The notes beneath the pieces are model-generated. The model was given only the letters and a program-made list of their open reading frames with translations, was not told where the DNA came from and ran no database searches. A program made the position numbers and the translations under genes. 32,000 nt of DNA from positions 1,140,001 to 1,172,000 of the forward strand of contig NC_010655.1 of assembly GCF_000020225.1 (NCBI RefSeq), read 5' to 3'. This DNA comes from Akkermansia muciniphila ATCC BAA-835. Lineage in GTDB: Bacteria; Verrucomicrobiota; Verrucomicrobiia; Verrucomicrobiales; Akkermansiaceae. This document shows, one piece after another, positions 2,034-32,000 of the stretch (positions within the stretch are counted from its first letter, which is position 1; each line of letters starts with the position of its first letter).

Positions 2034-3329
2034 TTATTGGGAGATAAGGTCCCGGGCCTTGTCCAGAATTTGGGCGGCTTCCTCTGCGGGAATGCCCATG
2101 CTTTCCGCGATGTCGGAAGCTTCAAATCCGGTGAGGGCCACCAGGTCCGTTCCGCCCATGGTCACCAGGCCCATGGCGGTTTCTTCCGGGATTTCCAATT
2201 GTTCGCTGAGGGTTTTGGCCGCAGCCTGGCATTGGCGCATGACTTCTTCGGCCGCAGCCTGGCTCTGGCGTTTTTCCGCTTCCTGGACATCAAAGACGCG
2301 CACCTGGACATCCCAGCCCATCAGGCGGGAGGTGAGGCGGGCATTCTGGCCCCTGCGGCCGATGGCCTTGGAGAGGTCTTTGTCGTCCTGGACGATAACG
2401 AAGATTTTTCTGGCTTCCTCGTCCACGGTGATTTCCCGCGGTTCCACGGGGCTGAGAGCTTCCCGGACGAAGGTGACGGGGTCTTCCGTCCATTCCAGGA
2501 TGTCCACTTTTTCATTGTTGAGCTCCCGGACGATGTTTTTGACGCGGGCGCCGCGCATGCCTACGCATGCCCCTACCGGATCTACTTTGTCGTCATGGCT
2601 GATGACGGCCACTTTGGTGCGGTAGCCGGCTTCGCGGGCGATGCCGTGGATTTCCACGGTCTGGTCGCCTATTTCCACCACTTCCGATTCAAAGAGGCGG
2701 CGCACCAGGTTCGGATGGCTGCGGGAAAGGATGACTTCCGGGCCGCGTGCTTCCGTGCGCACTTCCACCACGTAGAAGCGCATGCGGTCGCCGACGCTGT
2801 AGTCTTCATTCGGCACGCGTTCGCGGGAGGTCATGACGCCTTCGAATTTGCCGAGGTCCACAAAAATATCCCCCTTTTCAAAACGGCGGATGGTGCCCGT
2901 TACCAGATCTCCGGCGCGGTCCTTGAATTCGTCGTAGAGCATTTCCTTTTCCGCATCCAGCAGTTTCTGGAGCATGGTCTGGCGGGCGGTCTGCACCGCG
3001 ATGCGGCCGAAGCCCTTGGGCGTGATGTTGGTGGGGAGCAGGTCGTGAAGCACGGCGTTTTTGTCCAGCTTGACGGCCAGGGAAAGGGGGATCTGGTTGA
3101 ATTTGTCGGAATATTCTTCATCCGGCACCACTTCCAGGTCCGCAAAAATACGCACCTTGCCCTTGTCCACGTTGATTTCGGCCCTCAGGTAGTTGATGCT
3201 GCCGGAACCGGGAACCATTTTGCGGTAGGCGGAGAGAAAGGCGGACTCCAGAGCGAGGAGAATTTTTTCACGGGAGAGCCCTTTTTCCCTCTCGTAGTAG
3301 TCAATCAAAGCTTTAATATCGTTTGTCAT
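2034..3329 (-). CDS. nusA: transcription termination/antitermination factor NusA
   Basis: Track ORF 2034-3443, trimmed to the internal ATG at 3329 (MTNDIKALIDYYEREKGLSREKIL...), which is a typical NusA N-terminus. S1 domain (GDLVTGTIRRFEKGDIFVDLG) and two KH domains (GMRGARVKNIV, AIGRRGQNARL) are present. Confidence 0.93.
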   Translation of the reverse strand: MTNDIKALIDYYEREKGLSREKILLALESAFLSAYRKMVPGSGSINYLRAEINVDKGKVRIFADLEVVPDEEYSDKFNQIPLSLAVKLDKNAVLHDLLPTNITPKGFGRIAVQTARQTMLQKLLDAEKEMLYDEFKDRAGDLVTGTIRRFEKGDIFVDLGKFEGVMTSRERVPNEDYSVGDRMRFYVVEVRTEARGPEVILSRSHPNLVRRLFESEVVEIGDQTVEIHGIAREAGYRTKVAVISHDDKVDPVGACVGMRGARVKNIVRELNNEKVDILEWTEDPVTFVREALSPVEPREITVDEEARKIFVIVQDDKDLSKAIGRRGQNARLTSRLMGWDVQVRVFDVQEAEKRQSQAAAEEVMRQCQAAAKTLSEQLEIPEETAMGLVTMGGTDLVALTGFEASDIAESMGIPAEEAAQILDKARDLISQ

Positions 3330-3356
3330 GAGTGTGGAGGAGTGTGATGGATAGAC

Positions 3357-3384
3357 AAAAAAGAGCGGGTCGACAGACCCACTC
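3357..3384 (-). terminator. intrinsic-terminator-like hairpin in the nusA leader
   Basis: Minus-strand RNA reads GAGUGGGUC-UGUC-GACCCGCUC followed by UUUUUU: a 9-bp stem with one G-U pair. It ends 27 nt upstream of the nusA ATG, and no upstream minus-strand gene is present for it to terminate. Confidence 0.5.
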
Positions 3385-3583
3385 TCGAGTGCCTCTCGGG
3401 GTGTTTGCCTATTTAAGTAAGCACGAGGGGGAGGTTCTGGCAAGAAAAAACGCTTGTTCTATGCGGCATGCAAAAGACTGGGGATGATTCCGGAAGAAGA
3501 ATTTTCCGGAGCCCTCCGGGAGGGGGCGGGACAACGGTGTTTGAGGGCTTGACGGACCCGTGAAAAACGGGAAGTATGCGCGC

Positions 3584-4345
3584 ATGAAACTCGTCTCATG
3601 GAACGTGAACGGATTGCGGGCGGTTCTGGGCAAGGGAATGGCGGACGCCGTGGATGCCCTGGAGCCGGACGTCCTCTGCCTTCAGGAGATCAAGGCGCGT
3701 CCGGAACAGGTGAAAGACCTGTGGATTTCCTCCTGGCCGCACCAGCTCTGGAATCCGGCGGAGAAGGCCGGCTATTCCGGCGTGCTGATCCTCAGCCGGG
3801 TGCGGCCTCTTTCCACGTCCGTCGGAATCGGCTGGCCGGAGCATGACCGGGAAGGGCGCGTCTGCACGATGGAATTCGAGGGGTTTTACCTGGTCAACTG
3901 CTATACGCCCAATTCACAGAATGAACTGGTGCGCCTTCCGTACCGGGAGCAGTGGGACGCCGCGTTCCGCGAGTATGTGGCGGGACTGGCGGAAACCAAG
4001 CCGGTCGTTTTCTGCGGAGACTTGAACGTGGCCCATGAGGAGATTGACATTGCACGTCCCAAAGAGAACCGTTTTTCCGCCGGGTTCAGCGACCAGGAGC
4101 GCGCCGGGTTCACGCTGCTGCTTGAGGCCGGTTTTACGGATACGTTCCGCGCCCTGCATCCGGAGGAGCCGGGCTGGTACAGCTGGTGGTCCTACCGCGC
4201 GGGCGCCCGCGCCCGGAATATCGGATGGCGCATTGACTATTTCTGCGTTTCCAATCCGCTGGCTTCCAGGGTGAAGGATGCCGCCATCCATCCGGATGTG
4301 ACGGGGTCCGACCATTGCCCCGTCAGCCTGGAGATTGACTGCTGA
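3584..4345 (+). CDS. xth: exodeoxyribonuclease III (AP endonuclease family)
   Basis: MKLVSWNVNGLRA N-terminus, LCLQEIKA, and C-terminal SDHCPV motif. Start placed at the ATG at 3584 rather than the GTG at 3560. Confidence 0.9.
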   Translation: MKLVSWNVNGLRAVLGKGMADAVDALEPDVLCLQEIKARPEQVKDLWISSWPHQLWNPAEKAGYSGVLILSRVRPLSTSVGIGWPEHDREGRVCTMEFEGFYLVNCYTPNSQNELVRLPYREQWDAAFREYVAGLAETKPVVFCGDLNVAHEEIDIARPKENRFSAGFSDQERAGFTLLLEAGFTDTFRALHPEEPGWYSWWSYRAGARARNIGWRIDYFCVSNPLASRVKDAAIHPDVTGSDHCPVSLEIDC

Positions 4346-4389
4346 GCGCGGTCTTTCAGATGATTTTCAACTGTAAAAGATTGATGATT

Positions 4390-5004
4390 ATGGAACAGGA
4401 ATTGCCGCTGCTGGTGGTTGCCACGCGCAACGCCCACAAGACCGGGGAAATCCGCGCCATGCTGGCCGGGAAATGGGAAGTGAAGGATCTTTCCGACTAT
4501 CCCCAGGCTCCGCCCGTGGATGAAACGGGAGTCACGTTTACGGAGAACGCCACGCTCAAGGCGCTTTCCGCTTCCAGATGCATCCCCGGCGTCCTGCTGG
4601 CGGATGATTCCGGGCTGGAGGTGGATGTGCTGGACGGGCGCCCCGGAGTCTGGTCCTCCTCCTTCGGCGGGGAGGAAGGGAATCATGCGCGGAATAACCT
4701 CCGCATGATGGAGGAACTGCGGCGCGCCGGCGTGAAGCCGGGGGACAGGCCTTCCGCGCGGTTCCGCTGCGTCATGGTGCTTGCCGGGAACGGCCGCGTG
4801 CTGGCGGAGTTTTCCGGTTCCGTGGAAGGCTACATGTTGACGGAGCCGGCCGGAGAAGGAGGGTTCGGCTATGATCCGCTGTTTGTCCCGGAAGGGCATG
4901 ACCGGAGTTTCGCCCAGCTTCCCATGGAAGTGAAAAATTCCATGTCGCACCGCGCCCGCGCTCTGGCACAGGTGGTGGAGTGGATGAAGGAACGCCGGGC
5001 CTGA
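4390..5004 (+). CDS. rdgB: non-canonical purine NTP (dITP/XTP) pyrophosphatase, RdgB/HAM1 family
   Basis: LLVVATRNAHKTGEI, GFGYDPLF and SHRARAL motifs. Start is ambiguous: ATGs at 4360, 4384 and 4390. Confidence 0.88.
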   Translation: MEQELPLLVVATRNAHKTGEIRAMLAGKWEVKDLSDYPQAPPVDETGVTFTENATLKALSASRCIPGVLLADDSGLEVDVLDGRPGVWSSSFGGEEGNHARNNLRMMEELRRAGVKPGDRPSARFRCVMVLAGNGRVLAEFSGSVEGYMLTEPAGEGGFGYDPLFVPEGHDRSFAQLPMEVKNSMSHRARALAQVVEWMKERRA

Positions 5005-5035
5005 GGTCTTTCCCGGACGCCTGGCGGCGGGGAGG

Positions 5036-5611
5036 TCAGTCCAGCCTGAAGGCGCATATCTGGAAGGGAGCCGGTGTTCCGGTGTTCAGGAGCTGGTATT
5101 TGCCGGCGCGCCAGGAATGATGGGGCAGGCGGGACAGGAAGGCTTCCACGGCTTCCGCTTCTTCCTTTCCTCCTTCGTGGCCGGGATAGCACATGACGCT
5201 GAGAAGCCCGTTCGGGGCAATGAGAGCGGCGGCCTGTTCCAGCGCCGCCAGGGTGCATTCCGTCCTGGTGACCGTTTTTTTGTCCCCGCCCGGCAGATAG
5301 CCCAGGTTGAAAACGATGGCCTTCACGGGGCCTCCGACCAGTTCCGCCAGGCGGTCATGGCTGGCAAGATGGAGCTGGACGGAAGGGGTGAGCAGCCCTT
5401 CCTTCTCCAGACGCTCCCTGGTGGCGCGGATGGCTTCTTCCTGCACGTCAAAGGCGTGCACCTGGCCGGAAGTGCCAACCAGCCGGGCCAGGAAAACCGT
5501 ATCGTGCCCGTTGCCCGCCGTGGCGTCCACGACTGCGTCCCCGGGGGAGACGACGCGGCTGATCCAGTCATGAGCGCAGGTCATGGGGCGGCTGAGCAGG
5601 GAACATTTCAT
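5036..5611 (-). CDS. class I SAM-dependent methyltransferase, YtqB-like putative rRNA methylase
   Basis: C-terminal 191 aa of track ORF 5036-6049. The VDATAGNGHDTVFLA SAM-binding motif and the length fit the YtqB family. The upstream part of the ORF overlaps the DUF362 gene and looks non-coding. Confidence 0.8.
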   Translation of the reverse strand: MKCSLLSRPMTCAHDWISRVVSPGDAVVDATAGNGHDTVFLARLVGTSGQVHAFDVQEEAIRATRERLEKEGLLTPSVQLHLASHDRLAELVGGPVKAIVFNLGYLPGGDKKTVTRTECTLAALEQAAALIAPNGLLSVMCYPGHEGGKEEAEAVEAFLSRLPHHSWRAGKYQLLNTGTPAPFQICAFRLD

Positions 5612-5768
5612 GACCGGGTTGTACAGAAGCCTTGCCTGTATGACAATTCGTTTATGAAATTCCGGTGCGGGAAGAATGACAGGTTGTTTTTTGGCAGGGC
5701 GTGTGTTAGGAAGAGGCATAAAACCTTCTGCGTGTTCCCGCATGCGGGGATAAACCACAGACGTTGCC

Positions 5769-6689
5769 ATGAAGATGACTGACAGACGCACTTTTTTGAA
5801 AAGGACTGCCGCCGCAGGGGCGCTGGCGGCCATATCGGACATGGATTCCCTGTTCGCCCAGGAGGCCGGAGCTCCGGCGGCTTCCGGCATCCCGGATCTG
5901 GTGGCCGTTCGCAACGGTACCCGTGCGGAGATGGTCAGGAAGGCCGTGGAGACGCTGGGCGGCATGCAGGCTTTCGTCAAGCCGGGCCAGACCGTCGTCA
6001 TCAAGCCGAACATCGGCTGGAACAAGGCTCCGGAATTTGGCGCCAACACTCATCCTGAAACCGTCGCCACGCTGGTGGAGCTGTGCAGGAAGGCCGGGGC
6101 GAAGGAAGTAAGGGTGTTTGACCACTGCTGCCACAACGGCGCTTATGAGGGCAGCGGCGTGAAAGAGGCCGTAGAGAAGGCTGGCGGTGTGATGGTGGAC
6201 GGCGGCAATGAGAGCCAGTACGTGCGGACGGAAAACCCGAAAGCCCGGAAATTCACCTCCGCCAAGGTGCATAAGGCCGTGCTGGAAGCGGATGTTTATA
6301 TCACCTGCCCGCCCCTCAAGCACCACAGCGGTTCCGAGATGACCGCCTGCATGAAGAATGTCATGGGCACCGTCTGGGACCGCGGGGCCATGCATAAGAA
6401 CGACCTGCACCAGTGCATCGCGGACGCCGTGTATTTCCGCAAGCCGGACCTGTGCGTGCTGGACGCCTACATGCCCATGGTGCGCAATGGCCCCGTGGGG
6501 AAGGATACGAATGACCTGGTGGAGCGCAAAACCCTTCTGGCTTCCCGTGACATCGTGGCCATTGACGCTGCGGGCGCCGCCCTGCTGAACAAGGCCGGAA
6601 AAATTCGCCATGTGCAGCTTGGGGAGGAAATGGGGCTGGGCGTCGCCGACCTTTCCAGGCTTAATATCCGCCGTATCAGCATGGCCTGA
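5769..6689 (+). CDS. DUF362 domain protein with twin-arginine (Tat) signal
   Basis: N-terminus MKMTDRRTFLKRTAAAGALAA is a Tat-type signal. The body (VVIKPNIGW, KHH, CVLDAY, ASRDIVAIDA) matches my recollection of DUF362. Confidence 0.75.
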   Translation: MKMTDRRTFLKRTAAAGALAAISDMDSLFAQEAGAPAASGIPDLVAVRNGTRAEMVRKAVETLGGMQAFVKPGQTVVIKPNIGWNKAPEFGANTHPETVATLVELCRKAGAKEVRVFDHCCHNGAYEGSGVKEAVEKAGGVMVDGGNESQYVRTENPKARKFTSAKVHKAVLEADVYITCPPLKHHSGSEMTACMKNVMGTVWDRGAMHKNDLHQCIADAVYFRKPDLCVLDAYMPMVRNGPVGKDTNDLVERKTLLASRDIVAIDAAGAALLNKAGKIRHVQLGEEMGLGVADLSRLNIRRISMA

Positions 6690-6757
6690 CGCGGCGGCTC
6701 CTTCTCCCGTCTGCGGATGACGCGGTGGGGGGCCAACTTTCCGCCTCCGGCGGGTTT

Positions 6758-8524
6758 ATGATAAATATGTCAGTTATCAAAGCCTTTCTCGTCAGTCCTC
6801 TGAAGTGGCTCCGCGTGACGGTGGCCGTCATTTTCTTTATTGGGATTGCATACGCTTTTCTGCACCACATTCCCGCGTGGAACGTGCCGAACATGACGGG
6901 GGGCGGAGAGGGGATGGAAGATTCCTTTTCCCTGGCGCGGTGGCAATTTGTGCCGTCCGTGCTGGGGACCCTGAGCGGGGCAGCCGTTTCCGCCGTGATT
7001 CTGGGGGTTTTGCTGCTGCTTACGCTGCTGTTCGGCCGCGTATACTGTTCCTTCATCTGCCCGCTGGGGATTCTCCAGGATATTGTCTTCAGAATCCGCC
7101 GCTGGCTGGCGCCGAAGCGTTTCCTGAAATTCTCCCGGCCTGTGCCGTGGGTGCGGTATGGGGTGCTGGCATTGCTGGCCGCCTGCTGCGTGACGGGGCT
7201 GGCCGGTCTGTCTCTGAATTGGCTGGACCCTTACAGCATTTTCGGGCGCATCATGTATGTGCTGGCATGGCCGGCCGCCATTTGGAGCAATAACCTGCTG
7301 GCGGCGGACAGTTCTTCTGCGGACCTGGTCCAGATGGATTATTTCCCCGCGGCTTTCCCGGTTCTGCTGGCTTCCGCCGGCATGCTCGGCCTGGTGGCCG
7401 TCATGAGTGCCTGGAAGGGGCGCCTGTATTGCAATACGGTATGCCCCGTCGGCACGCTGCTTGGCCTGCTTTCCCGTATCTCCCTTTTCCGGCTGGGCTT
7501 TGATCCCGCCTCCTGCAAGAAATGCGGCAAATGCGTCAAATCCTGCAAGGCGCAATGCCTGAACCTGAAGGAATACAAAATAGACTCCTCACGCTGCGTG
7601 GCGTGCTACGATTGCGTGCGCTCCTGCAGTGAGGGGGGAATACGCTACCGCTGGTTTACCAGGGCCCGTCAACTGGTTCCGGCCCAAAAAAAGAAGGCTT
7701 CCCCGGATACCGCCCTCTCTTCTTCCGCCGCAGTTCCCTCCATTGCCGGGAGTTCCCGCCGCCAGTTCCTGGAGGCTACTGCGGCCGGGCTGGCTACGGC
7801 CGCCCTTTCCGGATGCCGGGGAGATGCCGCCCGGAAGCTGGACCCCACCCAGTGCGTTCTTCCTCCCGGAGCCGGTTCCCTGGAACGTTTTCTGGATATC
7901 TGCACCGGCTGCCAGATGTGCGTTGCCAACTGCCCCACCCATGTGCTTCAGCCTTCATACCTGCAGCTTGGCCTGAAGGGATTCATGAAACCCCGGATGG
8001 ATTTTGCCACCAAATACTGCCTTTATGATTGCCACCGGTGTGCGGAAGTCTGCCCCACGGGGGCCATACGCAGGATGCCTGTTACCGCGGAAAGGGATAC
8101 TGAGGGAATAACAAAAGATACTACGCGCATTGCCGTGGCCCGGTTTTACGTCTGCCGCTGCCTGGTTGCCCGGGAGGACATGGATTGCGGAGCCTGTACG
8201 GAGCATTGCCCCACCAAGGCCCTTTACACGGTGCCCTATATCGGGCGTGACGGCCAGGAGCACCGCCTGCCCAGGCTGGATCCTTCCCTGTGCATCGGCT
8301 GCGGCGCGTGCGAACACGCCTGTCCCGTTACCGCGGAACGGCCTGAGGAACGCGAACGCCGGAACTCCTGCGATTTGTGCGAGGAAAAATGCGAGTTCGG
8401 AAGGCGGCGGGAAATGCCCCCCCGGGCGTTGGTGGTCCGTGCCGTAAATCCCCAGCAGAAAGCTGTTAAAAAGTTTGAGGACAAAGCTGTGGATCCGGTG
8501 GGGGATGCGGATTTTCCGTTTTGA
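6758..8524 (+). CDS. membrane polyferredoxin, NapH-like N-terminal half fused to NapG-like 4Fe-4S C-terminal half
   Basis: Two CxxxCP(L/V)G motifs within TM segments (YCSFICPLG, YCNTVCPVG). Six CxxCxxC(xxx)C(P) clusters: CKKCGKCVKSC, CVACYDCVRSC, CTGCQMCVANCP, CHRCAEVCP, CGACTEHCP, CIGCGACEHACP. Start could be GTG 6725, ATG 6758 or ATG 6767. Confidence 0.8.
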   Translation: MINMSVIKAFLVSPLKWLRVTVAVIFFIGIAYAFLHHIPAWNVPNMTGGGEGMEDSFSLARWQFVPSVLGTLSGAAVSAVILGVLLLLTLLFGRVYCSFICPLGILQDIVFRIRRWLAPKRFLKFSRPVPWVRYGVLALLAACCVTGLAGLSLNWLDPYSIFGRIMYVLAWPAAIWSNNLLAADSSSADLVQMDYFPAAFPVLLASAGMLGLVAVMSAWKGRLYCNTVCPVGTLLGLLSRISLFRLGFDPASCKKCGKCVKSCKAQCLNLKEYKIDSSRCVACYDCVRSCSEGGIRYRWFTRARQLVPAQKKKASPDTALSSSAAVPSIAGSSRRQFLEATAAGLATAALSGCRGDAARKLDPTQCVLPPGAGSLERFLDICTGCQMCVANCPTHVLQPSYLQLGLKGFMKPRMDFATKYCLYDCHRCAEVCPTGAIRRMPVTAERDTEGITKDTTRIAVARFYVCRCLVAREDMDCGACTEHCPTKALYTVPYIGRDGQEHRLPRLDPSLCIGCGACEHACPVTAERPEERERRNSCDLCEEKCEFGRRREMPPRALVVRAVNPQQKAVKKFEDKAVDPVGDADFPF

Positions 8525-26419: not shown

Positions 26420-27152
26420 CCTTTTGGCGGCGGCTTTCTGTGTCCAGGGAGTTTTGGCGGACGGAGAAAATTATTCCCTCTGGCCGCGCCGTCCGGAGGC
26501 CCTTGCTGAAGCCCGCCGCCTGATGGACTGCGGCAGTCTGCCAAAAGCTCTGGAACTGCTGCAGCCTCTGGCGGAACAGGGAGGCGTGGTGGGGAAAGAG
26601 GCGAAGGAACTCATCGGAAGGCTGCGCATCCGCCAGTTGCTGGATCCCAACGGACCGGACGTGAAAAAATATACCGTACGGAAGGGAGATTCCTGGATAC
26701 GCATGGTCAGAAAACTGGGTTGCTCTCAGGCCATGGTGGTTCACCTGAACGGTTTGATGGATATTCCCGCTCTTCATGCGGGAGATGTATTCAAGTACCG
26801 GCCTCTGGATTTCCATGTAGTGGTGAACGTGCCGGAAAAGGAAATCTGCCTTTACGACGGGACGGATTTTGTCAAGGGATACCCCATCCTCTCCATGAAG
26901 GACGGGGGGAAAAAGAATGTGGAAACGACCGTAAAGGATGAGCAGGCCCCCGTGTCCATCTACAGCAGGCAGTTTCCTTCTGCGGATAAGACGCTGGTGC
27001 TGGCGGCGGGAGGCTATGTCATTGACGCTGCCCGCGGTACGCCCCGCTCGCCTGGGTTTTATCTGAGCCGGCAGGACTGCAATGAACTGGCCATGCTGAC
27101 CAGGCCGGGAACGAAGGTGACTATCCTGAGGGGGAAAGGAGAGGAACCGTGA
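26376..27152 (+). CDS. exported LysM domain protein with a YkuD-like domain lacking the catalytic His/Cys
   Basis: Signal peptide ([16 protein letters not shown]) and LysM motif ([17 protein letters not shown]...LNGL...LHAGDVFKY). The C-terminus aligns to the YkuD pattern but reads GFYLSRQD where SxGC(I/V)R is expected. Confidence 0.7.
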
Positions 27153-27601
27153 GGCTGGTTATTCAGCGTGTCAGTAAGGCCGCCGTTCATATCGGCGGTG
27201 TTTGTGCGGGGGCCGTGGGGCCCGGTCTGCTGATTCTGGCGGGCATTGAAGAGGCGGATACGGAAGAAGATGTGCGCTGGCTCGCCAACAAGGCGGCGGC
27301 CATGCGCATTTTTTCCGACGCGGACGGAAAGATGAATCTTTCCGTAAGGGAAGTGAGTGGAAGCGTGTTGGTGGTGAGCCAGTTTACGCTGCATGCCTCC
27401 ACCCGGAAAGGGAACAGGCCCTCTTTCATCCGCGCCGCGAGGCCTGAGCGGGCCATTCCCCTGTATGAGCTGTTTAAGAAGGAATTGGCGTCTTTGCTGG
27501 AAGGCAGGGTGGAAAGCGGCGAATTCGGCGCGGATATGCAGGTTTCCCTGATTAACGACGGCCCGGTGACTATTTTCATGGATTCCAGGAAAAGGGAATG
27601 A
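27149..27601 (+). CDS. dtd: D-aminoacyl-tRNA deacylase
   Basis: MRLVIQRV, VVSQFTL and NDGPVTI motifs. GTG start overlaps the upstream stop codon (GTGA). Confidence 0.9.
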
Positions 27602-27769: not shown

Positions 27770-28213
27770 CTAAGGCCGGAGTTCTACTGGCTGGACGAAA
27801 TTTTCCGTAGCAGCCGCCTGTCCATAGGGAGAGTAATTGTAAGCCGCCGCGATCGTTCCCTGTGCGTCGAAGACCTCCGACACATTCTTGTTGAAGTCCA
27901 CGCCGTAGCAGTACAGGGAAGCGCCCTGCACGAGGGCCAGGGGGCGGGTGGCCACCGGTTCCAGAGGATCCCACAGCAGTGTCCGAAGCACGTTCCGGTT
28001 GTCCAGCATATCCAATGCCGCTATCTGCAAATACCCCCGGTACAGGTACCGTTCGTGGCTGGCGACCGTGCCGTTTTGGGTCACTTTCTTCATGTAGCGG
28101 CGTCCCAGGTAGTCGTAGCCGCATTCAATAATCGTGTTTCCATTCCGGCTGGTGAAGCTCACCGCGCAGTTGGCCGTATTATACAGATCGTCCAGCCACC
28201 CTGAAAGGCTTAA
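27770..28213 (-). pseudogene. orphan Rhs/YD core C-terminal fragment, no start codon context and no toxin domain
   Basis: The open frame begins just after a stop at 28214-28216. It encodes SLSGWLDDLYNTANCAVSFTSRNGNTIIECGYDYLGRRYMKKV...YLYRGYLQIAALD...RPLALVQGASLYCYGVDFNKNVSEVFDAQGTIAAAYNYSPYG. It is a near-copy of 30509-30701, and it stops shortly after the point where the other copy continues. Confidence 0.8.
27822..28013 (-). repeat. direct repeat copy A (Rhs core segment)
   Basis: Aligns base-for-base with 30509-30701. By eye roughly nine positions in ten are identical; this was not computed. Confidence 0.85.
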
Positions 28214-28580: not shown

Positions 28581-29027
28581 TTACATATCTAATATTAAAT
28601 AAATAAGCGAATACATAAAACCTGAAAAAGCCATTCCTAAAAGAAAAAATTGTACTTGTTTTAATCGTCTGAAAGACATATTTCCTCGGATAGCAATTAC
28701 AAGATAAAGTTCATCTGGATTCCAATGCTCATTTATCTTACAAAGAACGTATACAACTATAGCCACACAGGACATCAATAATAATGTGTACACAGAATTT
28801 AGGAATATAGCGATCACAACGCATCCGCCAGACTGGTACAGAGCTAACAGAATGAGTGCACATAAAACAATGAGAAATAAAGATCCTATAATTTCAGCAC
28901 TGATTTTGTATTTTCTAACTATATTCTGAATTTGTCTCCTTTTATAGAACTTTTCTTCTTGCTTTGTCTTTGATGTTAACAAACACATCAAAAAGAACGA
29001 AATGAGAACCCACAGTATAGAAGACAT
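28581..29027 (-). CDS. AT-rich 4-TM membrane protein, candidate orphan immunity protein
   Basis: 148-aa ORF with four hydrophobic segments (ILWVLISFFLMCLL, IIGSLFLIVLCALILLALY, VVIAIFLNSVYTLLLMSCVAIVVYVL, VQFFLLGMAFSGFMYSLIYLIL). It sits in the immunity-gene position of a decayed cassette. Confidence 0.55.
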   Translation of the reverse strand: MSSILWVLISFFLMCLLTSKTKQEEKFYKRRQIQNIVRKYKISAEIIGSLFLIVLCALILLALYQSGGCVVIAIFLNSVYTLLLMSCVAIVVYVLCKINEHWNPDELYLVIAIRGNMSFRRLKQVQFFLLGMAFSGFMYSLIYLILDM

Positions 29028-29042
29028 AAATCTACATTTTTA

Positions 29043-29333
29043 GTTCAAGACAGGCCATGGTCTAAGATGCCCTTGAGGCAGTGATGAGTGTCTGGTTGCC
29101 CGAGGCGTTGTATTGAGGCGCAAAGGAGGGGCCCGTTTTCTTCTTCGATGGCGGTGTGCTGGTTGAATTCGTTGGTCACATAGGAGAGTTCTTCGGCCGG
29201 TTCCCGTGCCGTCTTGTGGTTGCCGATGTTTGTCGTAACTGTAACCGTAGGGGGCGTCGCCCAGGGTGGTAGCGGTGAGTTCGTTTCTGCCGTTGTAGCT
29301 AAAGTTGTTGCTGTGAACAGACTCCGTTCCCTA
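29043..29333 (-). pseudogene. frameshifted Rhs/YD-repeat core remnant
   Basis: GC-rich block. The minus strand reads NNFSYNGRNELTATTLGDAPYGYSYD in one frame, NIGNHKTAREPAEELSYVTNEFNQHTAIEEENG in a second (an extra A in gacAAAcatc) and PSFAPQYNASGNQTLI in a third. Stops bound it at both ends. Confidence 0.7.
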
Positions 29334-29389
29334 GTGCGGCCCGGCGTCTAAAAAATCATAGTTTATGAGTAGATCATGCTCTCATGAAG

Positions 29390-29839
29390 TCAATCTAGAG
29401 TTGACATTTGTAGGTACAATTTATTGACATATTTTGCTTGCTCATCAAGTATATTTATTAAATAATGAATTTCTGATCTTTCTGATTTTATCTGATCTTT
29501 CATATTTAACGCTTTAGCTGCGTCTCTTTGATCTTCTATCCAAGTATCTATTTTTTCTTTTCTTTGTGGATCGTCTTTCTTGAGGTATAAATTTATAATT
29601 TCTAGTTTTTGAAATTTTATAATATCATTTGGAGTGACATCAAATTTAGAAAAAATATATTTTCCTGGTGCAAGGTTTCTTAAAGAACATGCTTGATTTA
29701 CAAACCATTCTGTATAAATGAGAGCTAAATTTGTATTAATATTTGATTCATTGTTTTCTTTTCTGTTAATGTTTTTCTGCTCAATGTTGGAGCAACTTGG
29801 GTATAATAACATGAACACTAAATATAATATTTTATTCAT
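29390..29839 (-). CDS. exported (possibly lipoprotein) candidate immunity protein for CT2
   Basis: 149-aa AT-rich ORF starting 3 nt after the CT2 stop codon. N-terminus MNKILYLVFMLLYPSC looks like a signal peptide with a lipobox-like Cys. Confidence 0.65.
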   Translation of the reverse strand: MNKILYLVFMLLYPSCSNIEQKNINRKENNESNINTNLALIYTEWFVNQACSLRNLAPGKYIFSKFDVTPNDIIKFQKLEIINLYLKKDDPQRKEKIDTWIEDQRDAAKALNMKDQIKSERSEIHYLINILDEQAKYVNKLYLQMSTLD

Positions 29840-29842
29840 TTT

Positions 29843-30697
29843 TTAATTTTTGGGAGGTGTTGTGAGAACCCATGATTTCGGGTTTTGAGGATTATCGACT
29901 TTATATAATATTATATTGCTTTTCTTTATTACGCTGTGGCATTTCCATTTTCCCCTATTACAGGAACACCATTTATAAGCCTGAACACTTACCCCTAATG
30001 CGCTCTGAGATCTGCCTTCTCCTCTCGAAGGTCGGATTTTTCTGTTGAAAGTATCGCCTGTTTGACTATAACATGTTTTGTTATAACAATCAAACCAAGT
30101 ATAAACTACATAACAACAATTTTCTTTACATATATTATTATGATCACATTCAGATGTGAAATTAGGACTTTTAACCGATGCTTTAACATTAATTCCTTTT
30201 GTTCCTGCATCCTGAATGATCGGATGTTCCTGTGATCTTTTGCATTCTTTGCAACATTTTGAACATGGATCCCCTGTTTTTATAAACCCCTTTTTTAACC
30301 CCAAAGCATCAAACTTATCTTGAGGGCTGTTCCCGAGGAACGCATATAAATTCCACCCCCCTTCTTCAGCAATGGGATCGCGGTTGATCCATCTGCCGTC
30401 TTTTGGGTTGTAAAAGCGGTAATTGTAATAGACCAGGGAGGATTCTTCGTCGTGCATCTCGCCGGACCACTGGACGGGCTGGACGAGGCTGCCCGTACTG
30501 GTCACGGCCCCATAGGGGGAGTAATCGTAAGCCGCCGCGATCGTTCCCTGTGCGTCGAAGACCTCTGTGACATTCTTGTTGAAGTCTACGCCGTAGCAGT
30601 ACAGGGAAGCGCCCTGCACGAGGGCCAGGGGGCGCGTGGCCATCTCTTCCAGAGAATCCCACAGCAGGGTGCCAAGCACGTTACGGTTGTTGATCAT
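29843..30697 (-). CDS. orphan Rhs C-terminal module: core fragment plus cysteine-rich toxin domain CT2
   Basis: Encodes ...RPLALVQGASLYCYGVDFNKNV...YYNYRFYNPKDGRWINRDPIAEEGGWNLYAFLGNSPQDKFDALGL, then 150 AT-rich-encoded residues with 13 Cys. Homology to the Rhs core extends to ~30715, where an in-frame stop lies. The only start is an internal ATG (MINN...). Confidence 0.8.
   Translation of the reverse strand: MINNRNVLGTLLWDSLEEMATRPLALVQGASLYCYGVDFNKNVTEVFDAQGTIAAAYDYSPYGAVTSTGSLVQPVQWSGEMHDEESSLVYYNYRFYNPKDGRWINRDPIAEEGGWNLYAFLGNSPQDKFDALGLKKGFIKTGDPCSKCCKECKRSQEHPIIQDAGTKGINVKASVKSPNFTSECDHNNICKENCCYVVYTWFDCYNKTCYSQTGDTFNRKIRPSRGEGRSQSALGVSVQAYKWCSCNRGKWKCHSVIKKSNIILYKVDNPQNPKSWVLTTPPKN
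30351..30454 (-). repeat. direct repeat copy C (Rhs core terminus)
   Basis: 104 nt aligning without gaps to 31897-32000. Most positions are identical by eye. Confidence 0.85.
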
Positions 30698-30701
30698 ATC
30701 C
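30509..30701 (-). repeat. direct repeat copy B (Rhs core segment)
   Basis: Partner of 27822-28013. Confidence 0.85.
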
Positions 30702-30910
30702 TGCGACGCTAGTTACAAGTAGCTACGGTCATTCTATTTAAGGATTTTTAGGGAATCCACATTTTTTATGATTTTTTGTCATCTTTGATACAATTGTTCT
30801 GATACTATTATATCATTGGAAAATCTTCCGATTCAATTCTCTTCCTGTATTCTTTATAATACACTAGCTTCTTATAAAATAAGTCTGAAAAGATTTTTTT
30901 CATGATTATT

Positions 30911-31213
30911 TCAATTAGAATCAGATTTATTTTTTATTTTTTTCAAGACATATGTTATTCTGAAACATTCAATGACTATAATGAGATAACCAAGAATTAA
31001 TACTGTATATGATATTAAAAGTTCATTCGAAAAGTTTTCCCATAATAGATTTATACCATGATACATTGTTGACAAAATTCCAATTATTCCAGAGATCAGA
31101 AATAAATAAATTGTGAGTTTGATAATTGGAAAAGGGAAGTTATTAAATGAAAAATTAAGAGTATTTTTTTTAACCAAACAAGAATTCTTAAAAATAGGAT
31201 TACAAAAACACAT
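30911..31213 (-). CDS. small membrane protein, candidate immunity protein for CT1 (possibly frameshifted; see findings)
   Basis: 100-aa AT-rich ORF with two TM segments (IIKLTIYLFLISGIIGILSTMY, LLISYTVLILGYLIIVIECF). An overlapping 57-codon ORF starts at 31269 in another frame and meets it at an A8 run. Confidence 0.55.
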   Translation of the reverse strand: MCFCNPIFKNSCLVKKNTLNFSFNNFPFPIIKLTIYLFLISGIIGILSTMYHGINLLWENFSNELLISYTVLILGYLIIVIECFRITYVLKKIKNKSDSN

Positions 31214-31298
31214 CCATAAACTAATTCAAAATATTCATATACAGTTAAAGGAGACTCAGGGTAAATCATAATACAGGTAACTAATTATATTTCGTTCA

Positions 31299-32000
31299 TT
31301 ATTTAGACCATATTTTTATATTTTCATTAAAAGATTTGTTAACAAGTTCTTCGTTTTGATCTATGATAAATGGGATTTTTAAAGTAGCGTCAATCTTAAT
31401 ATATTCCGTTGCATCTAAAGTTAAATATATTGGTTTTGCGTTCAAAGTTAATCCAGAACTTATCTTAAAATCGATAGAATAAGATGCTTGTATATAAGAT
31501 GATAGTGTAATGCCTGCATCAATTCTGTGAGAAAATCCTAATAATTCTTCCCGATAGGATGTTAAAGTTTTGCCATTACAATTGTCAATTTTAAGTATTT
31601 TTTCATTACTTAATCCAGCAATCATAGTTTTTAAAGAATATTCAATATCAGGAAGAATAGGCCACCATTTTTGTTTAATTTTAAGCCCTATACCTACACC
31701 TATACCAACATCTGTTCGTAATTTTGCTTCAATGCATACACAATTTTTCTTTTTTTCTATTGATATACTTCCCTCAATAATAAGAAGAATGGGTATGTAA
31801 CCCGCAGGAATAGTCATTGTGTAGCCAAATTCGTTAGTTTCTTTTCCGAGATAATCAATAGAAAATACCACTCCATTATCAACAAACCCGTACAAATTCC
31901 ACCCTCCCTGTTCAGCGATGGGATCCCTATTGATCCACCTGCCGTCTTTGGGGTTGTAAAAGCGGTAATTATAATAGGCCAGGGTGGGTTCTTCGTCGTG
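31299..32000 (-). CDS. C-terminus of an Rhs/YD-repeat protein with toxin domain CT1 (5' end beyond the window)
   Basis: The minus-strand frame is open from 32000: HDEEPTLAYYNYRFYNPKDGRWINRDPIAEQGGWNLYGFVDNGVVFSIDYLGK, then ~180 AT-rich-encoded residues. The M at the start of track ORF 31299-31895 is really an in-frame TTG Leu. Confidence 0.85.
   Translation of the reverse strand, partial: HDEEPTLAYYNYRFYNPKDGRWINRDPIAEQGGWNLYGFVDNGVVFSIDYLGKETNEFGYTMTIPAGYIPILLIIEGSISIEKKKNCVCIEAKLRTDVGIGVGIGLKIKQKWWPILPDIEYSLKTMIAGLSNEKILKIDNCNGKTLTSYREELLGFSHRIDAGITLSSYIQASYSIDFKISSGLTLNAKPIYLTLDATEYIKIDATLKIPFIIDQNEELVNKSFNENIKIWSK
31897..32000 (-). repeat. direct repeat copy D (Rhs core terminus)
   Basis: Partner of 30351-30454. 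Confidence 0.85.

Follow-up and report, generated by a model that had tools for sequence, protein, structure and literature searches.

Akkermansia muciniphila ATCC BAA-835 carries, within the 32,000-nucleotide (nt) stretch analysed here (NC_010655.1, positions 1,140,001 to 1,172,000; the window, with coordinates counted from its first letter), an orphan rhs open reading frame (ORF) that ends in CT2, a C-terminal tip of 150 amino acids (aa) with 13 Cys residues. The rhs locus of A. muciniphila has a variable 3' array, and in it this segment represents the toxin part of a silent orphan Rhs toxin/immunity cassette. Judging from its sequence and those of its relatives, CT2 appears to be a new, uncurated toxin family and fold within a well-known kind of system, the Rhs orphan toxin/immunity cassette, and is probably a disulfide-stabilised toxin that acts in the envelope.

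The orphan rhs-CT2 gene and its cysteines

The orphan rhs-CT2 ORF (30697..29843, minus strand) is intact, starts with ATG and encodes 284 aa followed by a stop codon. Its first 134 aa (30296..30697, minus strand) form an Rhs core fragment that begins with MINNRNVLGTLLWD and ends with NSPQDKFDALGL, including FDALGL. The ORF matched TIGR03696 (Rhs_assc_core; expectation value (E) 1.6e-21, residues 59-134) as well as NF041261 (RHS_core; E 5.5e-13, residues 45-134), and the core fragment shares 75% identity with the core tip of a long Akkermansia Rhs protein encoded on a 19.7-kb gut contig (L008). No Rhs body lies upstream of the orphan and the ORF begins within the core, in agreement with a first-pass annotation, made from the sequence alone, that had described the segment as an orphan Rhs C-terminal module. 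FDALGL (ORF residues 129-134, nt 30313..30296) is a variant of the Rhs C-terminal boundary motif DPxGL; at this boundary, which reads ...DKFDALGL, Ala replaces the Pro of DPxGL, and the relatives of CT2 show [WF]DxLG[LMYEA].

The toxin tip follows directly (30295..29846, minus strand; stop codon at 29845..29843). At the FDALGL boundary the guanine and cytosine (GC) content drops sharply, from 0.56 (core) to 0.35 (tip); the chromosome around has a GC content of ~0.55-0.64, and the whole 28-32 kb part of the window is a low-GC patchwork. We conclude that the low-GC tip of 150 aa was acquired horizontally. Upstream, ~110 nt before the ATG of the orphan, a sigma-70-like promoter match with an upstream TG (TTGAAT-18-TATAAT; 30807..30836, minus strand) is present; as evidence this consensus match is weak, with 12 such sites in the region compared to 8.6 +/- 2.8 in shuffled sequences.

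Translation of the minus strand, the strand having been left unstated in the first-pass annotation, confirmed the 13 Cys in the 150-aa tip after FDALGL and the four spacing motifs that had been reported. The Cys residues occupy tip positions 11, 14, 15, 18, 50, 56, 60, 61, 70, 75, 110, 112 and 119 and are spaced as CxxCCxxC, Cx5Cx3CC, Cx4C and CxCx6C. Because 2000 nucleotide shuffles of the 450 nt encoding CT2 yielded 3.1 +/- 1.7 Cys and at most 11, never 13, chance does not account for this number. Moreover, relatives down to ~28-30% identity retain 11 of the 13 Cys at invariant or nearly invariant positions. In an alignment of the CT2 family (A1; 15-16 sequences), C60, C61, W67, C70, Y71, C110, C112, G115, W117, C119 and W142 are invariant while C11, C15 and C18 are nearly invariant. 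The only polar residues that are fairly conserved in A1 are D29 (D/N), K38 (K/R), S48, Y71 and Y131. No His or Glu is conserved in A1, position 113 being E in most members and N in CT2, and neither a conserved His/Asp/Glu ligand set nor a conserved His/Asp/Glu/Ser catalytic constellation was found in this alignment. CT2 is also basic, with a net charge of +15 and an isoelectric point (pI) of 9.4; the pI exceeds 8 in 14 of 16 family members.

Two local signatures were considered and rejected. A catalytic C119-H120 pair was ruled out, as H120 is replaced by K, R, D, N, V or W in relatives. The sequence D-x-G-[TS]-x-G (tip residues 29-34) was rejected as an aspartic-protease-like or Ca-binding signature because its order is unlike D-T/S-G, the D gives way to N in some members, and no fold match supports it.

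AlphaFold2 run on the single sequence returned a mean predicted local distance difference test score (pLDDT) of 35.6 and a spurious N-terminal helix. With A1 as input, pLDDT rose to 88.4 with a predicted template-modelling (TM) score of 0.81, the five models ranged from 85.7 to 88.4, and the structure contained eleven strands and no helix. CT2 is therewith confidently predicted to adopt an all-beta fold. A cysteine-stabilised alpha/beta (defensin-like) motif, which had been considered on the basis of the helix in the single-sequence model, was dropped, as the alignment-based model is all-beta. When the CT2 model was searched with Foldseek against PDB and BFVD, nothing reached E<=0.001. The best PDB entries were generic Fn3/cytokine-receptor sandwiches (1dan_U, 7y8h_A) with E>=0.037, TM-scores of 0.31-0.40, root-mean-square deviations of 6-10 A and 8-14% identity; the best BFVD entry had an E of 0.012 and a TM-score of 0.34. 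These sandwiches resemble the CT2 model in their generic all-beta sandwich architecture, but the match values are too poor to be evidence of a relationship. The predicted fold of CT2 is thus one that has no detectable relative within PDB and BFVD.

The CT2 family and its downstream partner

The ATG of a second minus-strand ORF (29839..29390; 149 aa) begins 4 nt past the toxin stop codon. The encoded protein has a putative signal peptide, MNKILYLVFMLLYPS, with a lipobox-type Cys16, and is the natural candidate for the cognate immunity protein of CT2. A search with this partner returned 18 homologues, of which all named ones are from Akkermansia. A homologous partner gene lies directly downstream of a CT2-family toxin gene in seven of the eight loci examined (L008, L002/L003, L004, L006/L007, L009, L010 and L013; the partner in the window was also read). 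The partner proteins are 140-208 aa long and form one family that can be aligned despite 15-20% identity between distant members; the partner is kept even where toxin identity is ~30% and immunity identity is 15-20%. In an alignment of 10 partner sequences (A2), including those of L008, L002, L004 and L006, the Cys of the signal region is invariant, and the partners in L009, L010 and L013 carry the same Cys on inspection; W45, Q49, W100, Q104, A107 and L111 are the other conserved positions. All seven partners analysed begin with 1-4 K/R, reach a maximal hydropathy of 2.35-2.95 over 10 aa and carry the Cys at position 16-27. The lipobox is canonical in some (LFGC, IISC and FTSC, the latter in L013) and atypical in others (YPSC in the window, CTHC, NIQC). 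The partner family had no match in Pfam or PDB. In total, these features point to the partner as an exported immunity protein of the lipoprotein type. Such a conserved, co-diversifying and apparently exported partner would be expected for the immunity protein of a toxin acting on the periplasmic side of the envelope.

The rhs-CT2 ORF is common to hundreds of A. muciniphila contigs, with 98-99% conservation of the tip. Annotated proteins of A. muciniphila include near-identical ones, and the corresponding 90% cluster contains 230 sequences (e.g. WP_338431993.1 on 118 contigs and WP_219724018.1 on 197). A word-indexed protein search with the tip returned near-identical Akkermansia copies only; by contrast, an index-free HMMER search covering 1.84 billion representatives identified 24 representative relatives at E<=0.001, 17 of them at E<=1e-10 and all of them metagenomic. 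Re-searching the word-indexed database with a profile added only P0046. Two of the relatives, P0032 (1881 aa) and P0035 (1767 aa), are full-length YD-repeat/Rhs proteins with the CT2-family domain at the extreme C terminus, and their genes were confirmed on contigs. Moreover, P0025, a homologue 75% identical to CT2, ends the long Akkermansia-like Rhs protein of L008; this Rhs was called as two overlapping ORFs (2267..6058 and 5890/6001..7947; overlap 5890-6058), a split that reflects either a real frameshift or an error in metagenome assembly. Finally, in A. muciniphila GCA_039066465.1 (P0062/L013), a ~95% identical tip is located on an Rhs protein that is cut off by the contig end and measures at least 620 aa; the same immunity gene comes next, and further orphans follow. 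The Rhs core motifs of the non-Akkermansia members look Verrucomicrobia- or Planctomycetes-like.

Curated resources contained no counterpart of the domain. In Pfam, CT2 had no match at E<=10, Ntox/Tox and zinc-finger families included, and the members of A1 had just two chance-level matches at E<=1, each in a single member. In NCBIfam, only the Rhs core was matched by the ORF, and A1 gave one chance-level match (E 0.13, one member); sequence searches of PDB gave no significant match (E>=0.09), and literature searches returned no description of the CT2 domain. Accordingly, a characterised toxin family, as looked for in Pfam, NCBIfam and PDB and with Foldseek on the predicted structure, was not found. 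The earlier description of CT2 as being of unknown family therefore stands as far as curated toxin families and solved structures are concerned; however, the domain is not a singleton, having at least 24 representative relatives and occurring on full-length Rhs proteins elsewhere.

Between the window and L008, the ratio of nonsynonymous to synonymous substitution rates (dN/dS) was lowest for the core (0.12), followed by the partner (0.18) and the tip (0.25); the toxin and immunity genes thus both evolve under purifying selection. Several public variants have damaged core parts and intact tips: P0003 has lost the cleavage motif through an internal deletion, and the N termini of P0004 and P0006 are frameshifted. 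At the P0003 junction (L012, position 2616), a ~180-nt deletion fuses the core at ...TIAA to GFIKTGDPC, so that DALGL is lost with the tip intact. The first-pass annotation had raised the prospect of a segment that is never joined to an rhs gene and is decaying; instead, the tip occurs on long Rhs proteins elsewhere, has a dN/dS well below one and remains intact in these variants.

A pattern scan with the alignment of CT2 and P0025 across 185,579 species-representative genomes identified CT2 on only two short contigs, L011 (JAJBUQ010000026.1) and L012 (JAETUM010000110.1), from metagenome-assembled genomes labelled Rikenellaceae bacterium and Candidatus Stoquefichus sp. Both contigs are 96-98% identical to the rhs array in the window over 1.5-3 kb; therefore, we interpret them as mis-binned Akkermansia DNA and not as spread to other phyla. 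MCC8089257.1, a member of the 90% cluster, bears the same Rikenellaceae label. Taxonomic labels on such low-GC island contigs are thus unreliable. The same scan returned no CT2-bearing contig from the Akkermansia species-representative genomes, and therefore the cassette appears to be strain-variable. A further genome scan with a three-sequence sub-alignment gave 104 pattern matches, none of which was a true relative.

Disulfides or zinc, and the possible mode of action

For the high density of Cys, the first-pass annotation had offered two explanations, disulfides in a domain that works outside the cytoplasm or multiple zinc sites. The pattern of Cys loss bears on both. Among C14, C50 and C56, only the combinations {14,50,56}, {14} and {56} were seen (in 9, 7 and 3 sequences, respectively, including fragmentary members), so that the parity of this trio is always odd. 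Such parity fits an arrangement in which one Cys bonds a constant partner outside the trio and the other two bond each other. C50 and C56 were lost together in five aligned sequences (seven with fragments), in which W/Y and a longer loop are found instead. In place of C75, five members have V, D, L, W or Y, and because the complete members lacking this Cys have even totals of 12 and 10, C75 is the best candidate for an unpaired, dispensable thiol. From the DSSP register of the predicted structure, we infer that C70 lies opposite C75 and C110 opposite C119 across two hairpins. Overall, C14, C50, C56 and C75 are dispensable singly or pairwise and are replaced by F, N, S, W, Y, V or L.

Because the partner appears to be an exported protein of the lipoprotein type, the Cys losses keep an odd parity and no conserved His/Asp/Glu ligand set is present, we favour disulfides and an action outside the cytoplasm over zinc sites. 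Structural zinc is disfavoured because putative ligands are replaced by non-ligand residues, no His is conserved, and the partner is probably exported. Most characterised Rhs tips are cytoplasmic nucleases, ADP-ribosyltransferases or deaminases, and the first-pass annotation had accordingly called either explanation unusual for an Rhs toxin. This holds as a moderate oddity, since polymorphic toxins that act in the periplasm and are countered by a periplasmic or lipoprotein immunity form an established class.

We propose that CT2 is a growth-inhibiting toxin that, when carried by a full-length Rhs protein, would be encapsulated and then freed by autoproteolysis at the DxLGL boundary; autoproteolytic release of the tip next to the boundary motif is established for Rhs proteins. 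Carriage on a full-length Rhs protein occurs in other strains (P0062/L013, L008) or could arise by recombination through the 83-86% identical repeats described below. Upon delivery, CT2 would reach the periplasm of a competitor and harm an envelope component there, a location suggested because the antidote appears to be an exported, membrane-anchored lipoprotein; in this oxidising compartment ~5-6 disulfides would stabilise the beta fold, with C75 likely unpaired or dispensable. The lipoprotein immunity would block CT2 by binding. Given the basic nature of most members and the lack of a conserved catalytic constellation, we lean towards CT2 binding and perturbing an envelope component stoichiometrically (the membrane, a lipid-linked precursor or an envelope protein) rather than acting as a classical hydrolase. 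In the strain analysed here, the immediate value of the cassette would be immunity against sibling strains displaying CT2 on full-length Rhs proteins; in addition, the cassette may be a reserve toxin that can be activated by recombination through the same repeats. Activation of an orphan by recombination has been shown for Salmonella, according to the passage of PMC8920140 that cites Koskiniemi 2014.

Delivery in Akkermansia may occur via extracellular vesicles. Rhs proteins are expanded in A. muciniphila (PMC8920140) and enriched in the extracellular vesicles of AmII strains, and these vesicles inhibit AmI strains and alter their cell structure; the same study has no direct evidence for Rhs as the cause of this effect (PMC11923206). 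Speculatively, vesicle fusion would bring cargo to the periplasm, which fits an envelope-acting tip. The metagenomic P0032 has by inspection a typical Sec signal, MRTPRNIRLVKPLFIACMLHFGLFCHHVDA|V.

Several observations weigh against a disulfide-stabilised, envelope-acting toxin that works by binding. In L008, a Sec signal could not be recognised in the long Akkermansia Rhs, which, moreover, was called as two overlapping ORFs. The argument from Cys parity rests on ~3 independent loss events, and the Cys total is odd (13 or 11) in most members, so that not all Cys can be paired. On the side of the partner, the lipoboxes of several immunity homologues are non-canonical (YPSC, CTHC, NIQC), and L005 has a non-homologous downstream gene resembling a leucine-rich-repeat gene, which is cut by the contig end. 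Finally, D29, K38, S48, Y71 and Y131 are fairly conserved, and an enzyme is compatible with the lack of an obvious catalytic set.

This last point bears on the alternative that CT2 is a periplasm-acting enzyme of a new fold, for instance a peptidoglycan, lipid or lipid-II hydrolase, for which the logic of location and immunity would be the same. Characterised envelope-acting polymorphic toxins with periplasmic or lipoprotein immunity are mostly enzymes, such as those of the Tae, Tge and Tle types, and the five polar residues above are fairly conserved. Moreover, Akkermansia targets treated with vesicles lose structural integrity (PMC11923206). An enzyme of this kind is a serious rival, but we grant it only a modest chance, given that there is no invariant nucleophile/acid/base set, that His and Glu are not conserved, and that Foldseek found no structural similarity to any hydrolase. 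If CT2 instead were a cytoplasm-acting zinc-cluster protein with two or three Zn ions, targeting nucleic acid or protein, it would resemble most Rhs tips, and the metals would be held by CxxC-type knuckles together with CC, CxC and Cx4C; CxxCCxxC, CxC and the odd Cys total are compatible with metal clusters. Also, the domain is basic, and the long Akkermansia Rhs has no Sec signal, so that the tip would be made in the reducing cytoplasm. We regard this as improbable: the partner has a signal peptide and a lipobox-type Cys in seven loci and hence is probably not cytoplasmic, the loss of C14, C50, C56 and C75 to non-ligand residues would be intolerable for a tetrahedral site, a conserved His is lacking, the model shows a large beta sandwich and not a set of zinc ribbons or knuckles, and zinc-finger families in Pfam gave no match at E<=10.

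The damaged cores of P0003, P0004 and P0006, the neighbouring Rhs scraps in the window, which are clearly pseudogenes, and a promoter that is a consensus match only are all compatible with CT2 being a non-functional relic, i.e. a decaying orphan that is never expressed and whose Cys richness has no present function in this strain. Against this stand an intact ORF with an ATG, a tip conserved at 98-99% across hundreds of contigs with a dN/dS of 0.25 relative to the 75% identical homologue on a long Rhs, an intact immunity gene coupled to that of the toxin and, in another strain, an Rhs protein of at least 620 aa with the same tip, and we consider a relic very unlikely. We give least credence to CT2 being an adhesin or lectin directed at the host or at glycans, or an anti-eukaryotic effector carried on Rhs, with the lipoprotein partner as a chaperone or export factor. 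Akkermansia lives in mucus and the best fold matches, which are non-significant, are extracellular beta sandwiches resembling Fn3/cytokine-receptor domains; however, TM-scores of 0.40 or below are not meaningful, the family is also found in diverse non-Akkermansia metagenomic Rhs proteins, and a tip after DxLGL, a tightly coupled small downstream gene, orphan arrays and co-diversifying pairs are the signature of toxin/immunity systems. Altogether, a disulfide-stabilised, envelope-acting Rhs toxin is the reading that we prefer. An extended version of it, in which CT2 would define a new structural class, is speculative and in our view rather doubtful: here, a non-enzymatic, disulfide-locked beta sandwich would be delivered by Rhs-loaded outer-membrane vesicles and not by a type VI secretion system (T6SS), fold oxidatively in the periplasm of the victim, kill by binding an essential component of the envelope and contribute to the exclusion that leaves one A. 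muciniphila clade per host.

The surrounding Rhs array and related systems

The cassette lies in an array of Rhs fragments, and the layout is that of a classical rhs locus with orphan toxin/immunity cassettes. The preceding gene, on the same strand, contributes an Rhs core tip with a different low-GC tip, CT1 (31299..32000, minus strand; TIGR03696 E 9.2e-13, residues 1-52), and its rhs body lies beyond the end of the window. The CT1 tip is ~180 aa, looks beta-rich (GIGVGIGLKIK...) and has a weak match to DUF5095 (E 0.022). CT1 is followed by a small membrane ORF of 100 aa (30911-31269, minus strand), which is probably the CT1 immunity gene, and the two may be a membrane-acting toxin pair. On the other side of the CT2 cassette, a high-GC scrap of Rhs repeats (29351..29045, minus strand) is 81% identical to L008 6665-6905, and a low-GC ORF of 148 aa (29027..28581, minus strand) encodes a multi-pass membrane protein with several hydrophobic segments; having no toxin gene in front, this ORF looks like an orphan immunity gene that remained after toxin loss. 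Further on, a truncated Rhs core fragment of 130 aa (28162..27770, minus strand) ends with ...NFVQPVELRP before DxLGL and has no tip, and is a dead-end remnant. It abuts the housekeeping gene dtd (27149-27601, plus strand) at the edge of the island.

Two direct repeats link the CT2 orphan to its neighbours. D1 (30474..30729 compared to 27786-28041) consists of core-fragment DNA that is 83% identical and is shared with the truncated core fragment; as a homology tract common to orphan fragments, it could be a recombination substrate. D2 (30339..30454 compared to 31885-32000, in the tip of the upstream Rhs) consists of core-tip DNA that is 86% identical, and recombination through it would place CT2 together with its immunity gene onto the upstream rhs gene.

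Other loci have arrays of their own. In L013, the long Rhs bearing CT2 is followed at 2349-4244 by a 434-aa orphan Rhs with a weak Ntox16 match and by a 190-aa partner; comparison of these cassettes with those in the window therefore indicates that cassette order and content differ between strains. In L002, an orphan at 7109-7948, downstream of the metagenomic full-length Rhs of the CT2 family, has another tip that is rich in His, Asp and Trp (…HWNKGYRWNPGRNLYGHLWDG…CCKCGSKW), which indicates that the orphan-array organisation also occurs outside Akkermansia.

In the passages of PMC8920140 that cite Koskiniemi et al. 2013 and 2014, the orphan rhs-CT/rhsI modules of Salmonella, E. coli and Serratia resemble the CT2 cassette in having a short core fragment, a low-GC tip and a linked immunity gene, and likewise in lying downstream of the main rhs gene with homology tracts that permit recombination. 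Unlike these enterobacterial orphans, CT2 belongs to a Verrucomicrobium without a demonstrated link to a T6SS, its tip is uncurated and Cys-rich, and its candidate immunity protein is lipoprotein-like and not cytoplasmic. The logic proposed here, an envelope toxin countered by a periplasmic antidote with a signal peptide or lipobox, would be like that of periplasm-acting T6SS and polymorphic effectors such as Tae-Tai, Tge-Tgi, Tle-Tli (PMC10294624) and VgrG2b (PMC6899460). However, these effectors have recognisable hydrolase folds with defined catalytic residues; CT2 has neither of these, no fold relative and an exceptional density of Cys. The Rhs ('WapA') proteins enriched in Akkermansia vesicles (PMC11923206; PMC8920140) come from the same organism and are of the same protein class as the rhs-CT2 ORF; both studies classify whole Rhs proteins, and toxin tips or immunities are not described there.

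As a group, Rhs toxin tips hold a wealth of unexplored antibacterial activities, and the features of CT2, unlike those of most characterised tips, point to an envelope target and possibly to killing by a non-enzymatic mechanism. The host, A. muciniphila, is a candidate next-generation probiotic. Vesicles rich in Rhs proteins have been connected with strain exclusion in this species, for which a toxin/immunity pair has yet to be defined (PMC11923206). Together with the family alignment and the structural model, CT2 and its candidate immunity protein offer a defined pair for testing this link between vesicles and exclusion; as the cassette appears to vary between strains, it may also serve as a marker for strain compatibility.

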